In this document: in pieces, positions 59,417 to 61,838 of the stretch
How the letters are laid out: each line of letters begins with the position of its first letter
Numbering within the stretch: position 1 is the first letter of the stretch
IMG/VR virus record: IMGVR_UViG_3300033120_000864
Coordinates: 65,808-129,807 of that record
Length of the DNA stretch: 64,000 nt
Reading direction: 5' to 3' (one strand)
DNA from: a virus
Lineage: Duplodnaviria; Caudoviricetes
Notes under the pieces: model-generated
Database searches by the model: none
What the model was told of the DNA's origin: nothing
What the model saw: only the letters and a program-made list of their open reading frames with translations
Program-made: the position numbers and the translations under genes

Positions 59417-59992
59417 ATGGCAACAATAAAAATAAAAAAATCAGAATTCCAAAAGCTATATAAAGTAGCTTGTGATGGATGGAAGACTAAATTTAATGAA
59501 AAGTTTAAACATCAATTATTTGATGATGAACTTGAATTTGAAGAGTCTTTCATTGAAGAAATGGAAAAGGCATGTGATTCAAGTAGGCCTGAACAATTAA
59601 AGACACTAAAAAGTATTTTTAAAGCATATATAAAAGAGAATATATTCTCTCAGATTAGAAACTATTCTGATGTATGTAAAGCTCTGAAGATAAAAGAACT
59701 CACAATAAGTGATTTCAAAGCCTTTGGGGAAGAAGCTAAAAAAATGCTAGCTTTTCATAAGATCAAGAATATAGAGAAGCTATTCAATGAAACGTGGAAG
59801 CCTAACTTTATAGATGGAAGTCAGTATAAGTACTATCCATATTTCACTGCAAATAAGAATGGTGGTCTGGGGTTCGGTGATTGCAGCTGCTACTACTCTG
59901 GCTTCTGTGGCCGTGTTGGTCTTTTTAAAGATTCTAAAACAGCTACATTTGTAGGAAAGACTTTCACAGATATCTATCAAGATCTCATATAG
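59417..59992 (+). CDS. DGR target protein 1
   Basis: 191 aa; contains VR1 in frame; paralogous to target 2 (WKPNF..GSQYKYYPYF; FVGKTFTDIY). Confidence 0.9.
   Translation: MATIKIKKSEFQKLYKVACDGWKTKFNEKFKHQLFDDELEFEESFIEEMEKACDSSRPEQLKTLKSIFKAYIKENIFSQIRNYSDVCKALKIKELTISDFKAFGEEAKKMLAFHKIKNIEKLFNETWKPNFIDGSQYKYYPYFTANKNGGLGFGDCSCYYSGFCGRVGLFKDSKTATFVGKTFTDIYQDLI
59861..59921 (+). repeat. Variable repeat VR1
   Basis: 61-nt ungapped match to 60015-60075 with 19 mismatches, all opposite TR adenines. Confidence 0.95.
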
Positions 59993-60014
59993 GTTTATAT
60001 ATTATTAATATTCT

Positions 60015-60075
60015 AGTAGTCTAGAGTTCAATGATTACAACAACTACAACTCTAACTTCAATAGCAATGTTAGTC
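60015..60075 (+). repeat. Template repeat TR1
   Basis: agt agt cta gag ttc aat gat tac aac aac tac aac tct aac ttc aat agc aat gtt agt c; AAC/AAT-rich, intergenic. Confidence 0.95.
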
Positions 60076-60202
60076 AATACTTATTTTAGTATATAAACCG
60101 TGCCTATTGGCAAAAAACTAAGACAACTTAACACTCTCTAGTAACTTCAATGTTGAAAAAGAGTTTAGATAAGTAAATTAATTAATCAAAACTTCCCAAA
60201 TA

Positions 60203-60685
60203 ATGACTCAGGAAAGAACTATAAAACTGACTTTACAAAAAGCTCAAGAATTATATAAGACAGCAGAAGCAAGTCTTAAAGCACTCCTTGAAGCTAACTT
60301 CACAAAGGCAGAGCTATCTACAAATATAATAGATAGAATAAAAAGTTGGGATAATGTGGTAGAGTATTTCTCATCAGAGAAAATAATACTTCCATATAGT
60401 GATCCTACAACAAAACAACAGAAGTCCACAAACGCCTTTGTTAAGCTTCAATATATAATTAAAGCTTTAAATGAAGGATGGATTCCAGATTTCACAAACT
60501 CAGGACAGTATAAATATTATCCTTGGTTTGAGAAAAAAGCTCATGGTGGCTGGGTTTTCGGCGGCTCTGGTTGCGGCGGCTGTGGTTCTGTTGTTGGGTC
60601 TGGTTTTCACCTTAAATCAAGGGAATTATCAGACTATGTAGGAAAACAGTTTTTAGATATTTATAAAGAATATCTACCAGAATAA
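60203..60685 (+). CDS. DGR target protein 2
   Basis: 160 aa; contains VR2 in frame; WIPDF..SGQYKYYPWF; YVGKQFLDIY. Confidence 0.9.
   Translation: MTQERTIKLTLQKAQELYKTAEASLKALLEANFTKAELSTNIIDRIKSWDNVVEYFSSEKIILPYSDPTTKQQKSTNAFVKLQYIIKALNEGWIPDFTNSGQYKYYPWFEKKAHGGWVFGGSGCGGCGSVVGSGFHLKSRELSDYVGKQFLDIYKEYLPE
60539..60609 (+). repeat. Variable repeat VR2
   Basis: 71-nt ungapped match to 60711-60781 with 22 mismatches, all opposite TR adenines. Confidence 0.95.
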
Positions 60686-60710
60686 ACAAGTTTACAACTT
60701 GAAATAAACT

Positions 60711-60781
60711 ACTCATAGTAGCTGAGTTTTCAACAACTCTAATTACAACAACTGTAATTCTAATATTGAGTCTAGTTTTCA
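60711..60781 (+). repeat. Template repeat TR2
   Basis: act cat agt agc tga gtt ttc aac aac tct aat tac aac aac tgt aat tct aat att gag tct agt ttt ca; intergenic. Confidence 0.95.
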
Positions 60782-60893
60782 GTACTTATTATATCGTTGT
60801 AAACTTTACCTATTGGTAAAAAATGACACAAACTTAAAAGCCCCTTAGTACCTTAAATGTGGAACAGGGGCTTTAAATAAGTAAAATCACTAA

Positions 60894-61838
60894 ATGAAAA
60901 GAATAGGAAATCTTTATGGAAAAATAATAGATATAAAGAATTTGTATCTAGCAGAGAAAAAAGCAAGAAGAGGAAAAGGTAACAGAAAGGAGATAATAGA
61001 ATATGTAGATAAACTAGATGAAAATATTCTAGATTTACATTTAAAACTTCTCAGTGGAACCTATACTACAGGTGAGTATTATCATTTTATAATACATGAG
61101 CCAAAGAAGAGAGATATTGATAAGCTTCCATATAAAGATAGAGTAGTACATCATGCTATTTTAAACATATTAGAACCTATATTTGTAAATACATTTGTAA
61201 GTACAACTTATAGTTGTATAAAGAAAAGAGGAATTCATAAGTGTTTAAAAGATCTAAATAAAGGACTTATAGATAAAGAGAATACTAAATACTGTCTAAA
61301 AGTAGATATTAAAAAATTTTATCCTTCTATTTCTCATACAATTCTTAAAAAATTGTTAAGAACTAAATTTAAGGATAAAGAGCTTTTATATCTTCTAGAT
61401 GATATTATAGATTCTATAGCTGGAATACCATTAGGAAGTTATACTTCTCAATGGTTTGGTAATTTTTATTTGAATAAATTTGATCATTGGATAAAACAAG
61501 ACAAGAAAGTTAAGTATTATTACAGATATTGTGATGATATTGTAATCTTAGGATCAAATAAGGAAGATTTACATAATCTAAGGAAAGAAATAGAATTATA
61601 TCTCTTAGAAAACTTGGAGTTAGAACTTTCTAATTACCAAGTATTTCCCATAGAAAAAAGAGGTATAAATTTTGTTGGTTATGTCAGTTTTCACTCACAT
61701 ATAAAGCTAAGAAAGAGTATTAAGCAAAGATTTAAGAGGATGTTATTAAAATATCCAAATAGAAAGTCTATTGCTTCATATTATGGATGGCTAGCTCATT
61801 GTGATTCAGTCAATCTACAGAACAAGTATATCACCTAA
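60894..61838 (+). CDS. DGR-type reverse transcriptase
   Basis: 314 aa; EPKKRDI..LPYKDRVVHHA, LKVDIKKFYPSI, GIPLGSYTSQ (DGR-type SQ motif), YRYCDD; no maturase or endonuclease extension. Confidence 0.95.
   Translation: MKRIGNLYGKIIDIKNLYLAEKKARRGKGNRKEIIEYVDKLDENILDLHLKLLSGTYTTGEYYHFIIHEPKKRDIDKLPYKDRVVHHAILNILEPIFVNTFVSTTYSCIKKRGIHKCLKDLNKGLIDKENTKYCLKVDIKKFYPSISHTILKKLLRTKFKDKELLYLLDDIIDSIAGIPLGSYTSQWFGNFYLNKFDHWIKQDKKVKYYYRYCDDIVILGSNKEDLHNLRKEIELYLLENLELELSNYQVFPIEKRGINFVGYVSFHSHIKLRKSIKQRFKRMLLKYPNRKSIASYYGWLAHCDSVNLQNKYIT

Follow-up and report, generated by a model that had tools for sequence, protein, structure and literature searches.

Can one DGR reverse transcriptase (RT) diversify two target genes that each carry a template repeat (TR) of their own? 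The window analysed here, a stretch of 64,000 nucleotides forming the final part of a 129,807-bp phage contig, contains a DGR in the order target 1, TR1, target 2, TR2 and RT, all on the plus strand (Table 1). The initial annotation had paired each target gene with a private TR and assigned both to the one RT. Our reading, to which we give a probability of roughly 0.8, is that of an Avd-less DGR, carried by a crAss-related phage and made of two self-contained modules of gene, TR and RNA, which share a single RT.

Table 1. Features of the two-module DGR. Coordinates are those of the window.
Feature	Coordinates	Strand	Remarks
Target gene 1	59417-59992	+	191-aa ORF, long subfamily, phrog_11581
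VR1	59861-59921	+	codons 149-168 of target 1
5' leader of template RNA 1	59992-60004	+	13 bp pairing with 60087-60099
TR1	60015-60075	+	23 adenines, about 10^13 possible peptides
3' spacer of RNA 1	60076-60184	+	RT-17-like
Spacer 1: TR-end motif	60078-60084	+	
Spacer 1: leader partner	60087-60099	+	
Spacer 1: hairpin	60101-60112	+	
Spacer 1: after hairpin	conserved 3' tail at 60169-60175	+	A-run, linker, internally looped long stem, conserved 3' tail
Target gene 2	60203-60685	+	160-aa ORF, short subfamily, phrog_11581
VR2	60540-60609	+	codons 114-135 of target 2
5' leader of template RNA 2	60688-60698	+	11 bp pairing with 60796-60806
TR2	60712-60781	+	23 adenines, about 10^12.7 possible peptides
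3' spacer of RNA 2	60782-60893	+	scaffold as in spacer 1; RT-17-like
DGR RT	60894-61838	+	314 aa, intact

Both VRs lie in frame near the 3' ends of their ORFs, both TRs are intergenic, and the differences between TR and VR are confined to TR adenines. VR1 was identical to TR1 at all 38 non-A positions and differed at 19 of the 23 adenines (15 to G, 3 to T, 1 to C), while VR2 matched TR2 at 47/47 non-A positions with 21 of 23 adenines changed (20 to G, 1 to T). Adenine-only mismatches run on beyond VR1 to about position 59925, and an in-frame TGA in TR2 is read as TGG in VR2. When adenines were treated as wildcards, the next-best sites in the whole 129,807-bp genome matched TR1 at only 22-23 of 38 positions and TR2 at only 28 of 47, so the TR/VR matches are far above chance. 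Set against the VR of the other module, the TRs matched at fractions of only 0.58 and 0.51 of non-A positions. Thus, the only TR that fits a given VR is the one that follows its gene, as the initial annotation had it, and we found no single TR templating all VRs as in a conventional multi-target DGR. The limits first drawn for VR1 and TR1 were correct; those of VR2 and TR2 were also correct apart from their starts (60539 and 60711), each of which includes one extra base, an A mismatch.

Conversion in the window was very high, at 40 of 46 adenines over VR1 and VR2, with a strong A-to-G bias (35/40). In private-TR modules overall, 79% of adenines were converted and 72% of changes were to G; the corresponding figures for shared-TR loci were 69% and 53%. 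The high conversion and the A-to-G bias could reflect RT bias, selection or consensus calling.

The RT has an RVT_1 match, YCDD and a GxxxSQ-type motif, as expected of a DGR-type RT, and is the only RT in the genome. Its closest annotated relatives are crAss-phage RTs, one of which adjoins an Mtd-like tail gene. No avd gene scored above the cut-off genome-wide (PF22296) and no free ORF lies between the parts of the DGR, which by its gene content appears to be Avd-less rather than of the canonical Avd-dependent BPP-1 type. The phage is probably crAss-related on grounds of similarity: its TerL matches epsilon crAss-like and Cellulophaga phages at 29-39%, and portal and capsid were assigned by PHROGs. 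The head and packaging genes are on the minus strand and the DGR lies among small plus-strand genes. Members of the target family in cellular genomes are almost all in Bacteroidota records, so a Bacteroidota host is likely. Directly upstream of the DGR is an ORF (58403-58834) matching phrog_4786, annotated as cysteine dioxygenase, and before it (58297-58390) an odd tRNA-like gene with a long variable region, to which ARAGORN assigned an anticodon of four bases (taac). A 177-aa ORF at 63052-63585, lipoprotein-like at its N-terminus and rich in Ser, Gly and Asp in its tail, had no family match.

We analysed the RNA around the TRs across 62 cassettes. The common scaffold consists of a 4-bp hairpin and adenines, then a linker and an internally looped long stem; of its cells, 93.7% were paired, compared with 34-49% in slid control alignments, and compensatory changes were present in 9 of 10 pairs. 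The two window spacers scored similarly against the scaffold model (67.6 bits for spacer 1 and 71 bits for spacer 2), and spacer 2 had a folding z-score of -4.4. Each leader lies just past the stop codon of its target and is predicted to pair over 11-13 bp with the segment preceding the hairpin, the duplex score being 21.5 for cognate and 13.6 for non-cognate combinations. Prediction and covariation therefore both point to structured RNA around the TRs, and because the scaffold is complete around each TR, each gene has its own template RNA. A promoter and terminator scan performed at chance level, with no promoter signal above chance.

DGR reverse transcription is primed in cis, so that a TR functions only with its own flanking RNA, and the RT protein is diffusible. 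With cis priming, any further template has to come with a complete RNA of its own. We propose that the RT recognises the scaffold common to both RNAs and not the TR sequence, and would load on either RNA, prime in cis and copy the TR as far as the leader:spacer duplex, after which the cDNA would home by homology to the matching VR only. A private TR per gene would leave the fixed VR positions free to diverge between paralogues, and a single RT could thereby diversify several distinct protein scaffolds, and distant paralogues, in parallel. Modules could be gained, lost or moved as units.

The weakest part of this account is the primer. Priming may start from a short duplex in which the 3' end of the TR pairs with the spacer's conserved 3' tail, a proposal that we hold to be equally open to being right or wrong. 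The TR-end motif and the tail covary (G-C 37, A-U 6, G-U 1, A-C 0) in a manner that tracks phylogeny, and a broad duplex test over all 71 cassettes was not significant (P = 0.17). The tail also has an alternative partner, since in single-strand folds it may extend the long stem. The proposed pairing would cross the leader duplex and set the primer at the edge of VR homology.

It had been suggested that more such cassettes could exist elsewhere in the genome. For this phage that was not the case: no third cassette was detected by A-wildcard scans with both TRs, or by a de novo scan of the whole genome for TR/VR pairs at most 4 kb apart on both strands, and both the family profile and the RNA model found just two members genome-wide (third RNA match E 0.26). 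The suggestion did hold for relatives. The same one-TR-per-gene design was present in 10 other phage contigs with 2-5 cassettes each, placed both upstream and downstream of a single RT, as counted in the DNA covered around each locus, and up to about 6 kb from it. On a 130,555-bp phage contig, a single RT is surrounded by five modules: four have matching TR/VR pairs, including one about 6 kb upstream of the RT and one downstream, and the TR of the fifth has no adenines. L090, L270, G001, G005, L284, L285, L292, L322 and L435 each have two or three modules for one RT. Across 15 cassettes from six genomes, the non-A match was 0.97-1.00 to the cassette's own TR and 0.42-0.66 crosswise. With relatives carrying two, three or five units, the earlier idea of a stackable unit of gene, TR and structured RNA served by one RT was well founded.

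This design is a minority form. One TR for several VRs is the usual multi-target arrangement, as the initial annotation had stated: in the target family, 2-3 genes share one TR at 120 dereplicated loci, with one gene at a further 25 and several TRs at 11-12, the last amounting to about 7-8% of a locus sample biased toward the window phage's kin. In a quick RT tree, which omits five later private-TR examples, the window grouped (SH-aLRT 98) with three private-TR loci, three single-module loci and one shared-TR locus, and the RT of G001 fell among shared-TR RTs. Because G001 falls elsewhere in the tree, the one-TR-per-gene form probably arose more than once. A single origin of the modular architecture is unsupported, the quick tree needing at least three label changes.

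Several relatives show irregular arrangements. The fifth module of the five-module relative (Logan SRR21686422 contig, L256:10490-10666) has an intact leader and spacer and an adenine-free TR zone (A fraction 0.00 vs 0.31 +/- 0.05 in 133 TRs) that resembles a frameshifted, independently mutagenised copy of its own VR; cDNA made from this TR may have overwritten it. TR zones with a partial loss of adenines (A fraction 0.17), perhaps early stages of TR exhaustion, were seen at two RT-containing loci in which no TR/VR pair was detected (L107:5750-5830 and L234:1220-1300). The RT of the two-module DGR of G001 is in two pieces (L276:7532-8477), by frameshift or split. In L086, no RT lies closer than 6 kb to one of the modules, and the TR of a remote module at L085:366-560 matches its VR (0.98) beside a spacer with no scaffold match, this module being recently inactivated or divergent. 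In L092, the two target types lie 5 kb apart (720-1280 and 6001-6483) and 12 kb of sequence contains no TR, scaffold or RT; either the genes outlived the loss of a DGR or a distant one serves them. L395 (1-600 and 5000-7440) combines a shared-TR DGR with three VRs and, 6 kb away on the opposite strand, a gene-TR module, with one RT in the locus. In L001:3905-4765, a single ORF has two family domains, each with a VR, and one TR serves both.

Comparison with the orthologous cassette of L085 gave a copying history for module 2. The two cassettes are 93% identical in nucleotide sequence upstream of the VR; all four non-A differences between their TRs are mirrored in the respective VR, and the VRs differ at 12 of 22 A sites but at none of 40 shared non-A sites. 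Because these VRs follow their own TRs, TR-to-VR copying continued past the lineage split. Module 1 retains its perfect non-A match despite divergence from its orthologues, and L085 keeps the same two-module order, with a target 1 that is only 60% identical and a VR that again follows its own TR. Many VR haplotypes, with variation confined to A columns, were found in shared-TR relatives.

It is unlikely that the entire element, active formerly, is now dormant and that its VRs are fixed, selected alleles. Such a state would agree with the absence of any VR1 or VR2 difference in three further assemblies of the same phage (four identical assemblies in all, possibly from the same or related samples) and with the protein clusters, which are single-member and yielded no VR variants. 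Both targets' genes can also persist undiversified, because L092, in which neither a TR nor an RT lies within 12 kb, keeps them. However, the RT frame and motifs, the TRs and the scaffolds are all intact in the window, and rare variants are masked in consensus assemblies. Dormancy would bear on the timing of diversification and not on its architecture.

Both targets matched phrog_11581 and no other PHROG, and neither had a match in Pfam or NCBIfam, a sequence match or a Foldseek match in the PDB; the lack of a solved-structure match does not prove a new fold. Their family is a large, unannotated one of Bacteroidota phages, with 5,610 clusters at 50% identity, and the locus thereby points to a very large set of targets with no solved-structure counterpart. 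Target 1 contains the N-terminal module twice, as a member of the long subfamily. The AF2 models are confident (pLDDT 93-95) and show helices around one beta-hairpin; in target 2 this hairpin, at 104-125, joins a helical core, and VR2 forms its second strand and the next loop. We infer small soluble non-tail proteins in which the edge and loop of a beta-hairpin would expose the VR. As to function, the most likely role, for which we see even odds, is to bind inside the cell some variable protein of the host or of a competitor, for instance a defence factor. The family's usual pairing of genes suggested that target 1 and target 2 might form a heterodimer.

As in most phage DGRs, the targets could instead be virion proteins, used in receptor binding or decoration, whose C-type lectin fold is much reduced; we regard this role as distinctly unlikely. 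The VR does lie near the C-terminus, and family members end it in a GSRLCF-like motif, which resembles the ends of C-lectin VRs. In surveys, annotated VR domains were nearly always C-lectin variants (PMC8144416). However, the models are mainly helical, and the proteins are small (120-190 aa) and have no fibre or anchor domain; their genes are separate from the structural module and run on the opposite strand. Their predicted-structure neighbours (Atlas, BFVD) are uncharacterised phage proteins, several from crAss-like phages, and this holds for all of those in BFVD. The best VIA matches reached Z of only 4.1 and 3.9, and the C-lectin family, absent from these matches, is not thereby excluded.

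It is quite improbable that only the RT-proximal module (TR2) is live and that module 1 is a recent orphan of a second DGR whose RT was lost: relatives of target 1 do stand alone ahead of an RT (gene-TR-RT, in L271-L273), the VRs are invariant between assemblies, and decayed modules occur in relatives (cassette a of L085, with no scaffold match, and a fifth cassette on the L085 contig with an A-free TR), but the 38/38 match of TR1 and VR1, the like scores of the two spacers, the conserved module order in L085 with each VR tracking its own TR, and the recurrence of non-adjacent modules with intact scaffolds in the 10 other contigs all count against it. The initial annotation had spoken of a duplicated unit; a recent tandem duplication of the module is excluded by the targets, which are only 29% identical and belong to two separate subfamilies, each closer to other phages' genes, and which by these sequence measures appear to be old paralogues. 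Because the subfamilies are separate and the target 1 type stands alone in L271-L273, modules appear to have been added as units.

The two-module reading has several implications. The locus provides natural evidence that a DGR RT can act in trans on several template RNAs, with targeting set by each TR, and such action would make the RNA scaffold the portable unit. Multiplexed directed evolution would call for just such a layout: the RT has 314 aa, no accessory protein was found with it, and the scaffold is short and defined through covariation. Tools of the myDGR type use the first TR that they detect when looking for remote targets, and could therefore overlook modules whose own TR is far from the RT. 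In its broadest form, the proposal would be of one Avd-independent RT serving any number of dispersed modules through a compact RNA of ~190 nt whose own 3' tail would serve as primer, and diversifying intracellular non-C-lectin binders as a phage repertoire against host factors; as a whole this is possible but doubtful.

The locus is a genuine DGR and a recurrent architectural variant. It had been put forward as a candidate undescribed system, which as a DGR it is not, and several TRs per RT have already been mentioned (PMC12386605, PMC6642488); for the modular one-TR-per-gene form, the openly accessible literature held these passing mentions of several TRs and, as far as we found, no description. 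In the available text of Wu et al. 2018 (PMC5758913), architecture A1 (TR-RT) resembles the window in having no accessory gene, and 15% of DGRs are multi-target, but there several or remote targets match one TR, unlike the one TR per gene observed here. According to the accessible part of a report on the zeta crAss-like phages Lera and ct1yV3 (PMC12386605), one DGR has three TR-VR pairs. Unlike the window, these phages encode avd, and their DGR targets are tail-fibre proteins of the C-lectin type; non-A changes number 3 in pair 2 and 10 in pair 3, both of which the authors regarded as decayed, and that part of the report describes no per-TR RNA scaffold. In the MetaCSST survey (PMC6642488), more than one TR was near the RT in 55 of 271 multi-VR DGRs, by subtraction, an example being Stenotrophomonas SKA14 with two TRs and six VRs. 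These entries are counts that include atypical repeats with non-A changes, and no gene-plus-TR module is described.

The closest mechanistic comparison is with the DGR of Bordetella phage BPP-1, which consists of mtd-VR, avd, TR, Sp and brt and whose RNA structure has been reported (bioRxiv 10.1101/2023.10.23.563531). The two share A-specific TR-to-VR mutagenesis, the RT class and the order of RNA elements, namely cPRT-stop duplex, stem-loop and adenines, thumb ring and RT-binding stem, with the leader:spacer duplex as the counterpart of the cPRT-stop duplex. Unlike BPP-1, the window DGR has neither avd nor the Avd-binding stem-loop, its two TRs are 60-70 nt long with a scaffold each, its targets are small and apparently non-tail proteins, and its candidate primer strand follows the long stem on the 3' side instead of preceding the stop duplex. 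Both window spacers also matched the RT-17 RNA motif (Rfam RF03020; PMC5737381) over its full length, at 30.2 and 25.6 bits, which is under the gathering threshold of 40.4. Shared-TR relatives with the same scaffold pass this threshold (45.9 and 43.5), so the window spacers are taken as divergent AT-rich RT-17 homologues. The RT-17 paper, in the main text available, does not name the motif as part of a DGR; here it makes up the 3' portion of the template RNA, whose leader duplex the Rfam model does not include. Thus, the locus ties the orphan RT-17 motif to an Avd-less DGR RNA and makes Avd-independent priming testable.
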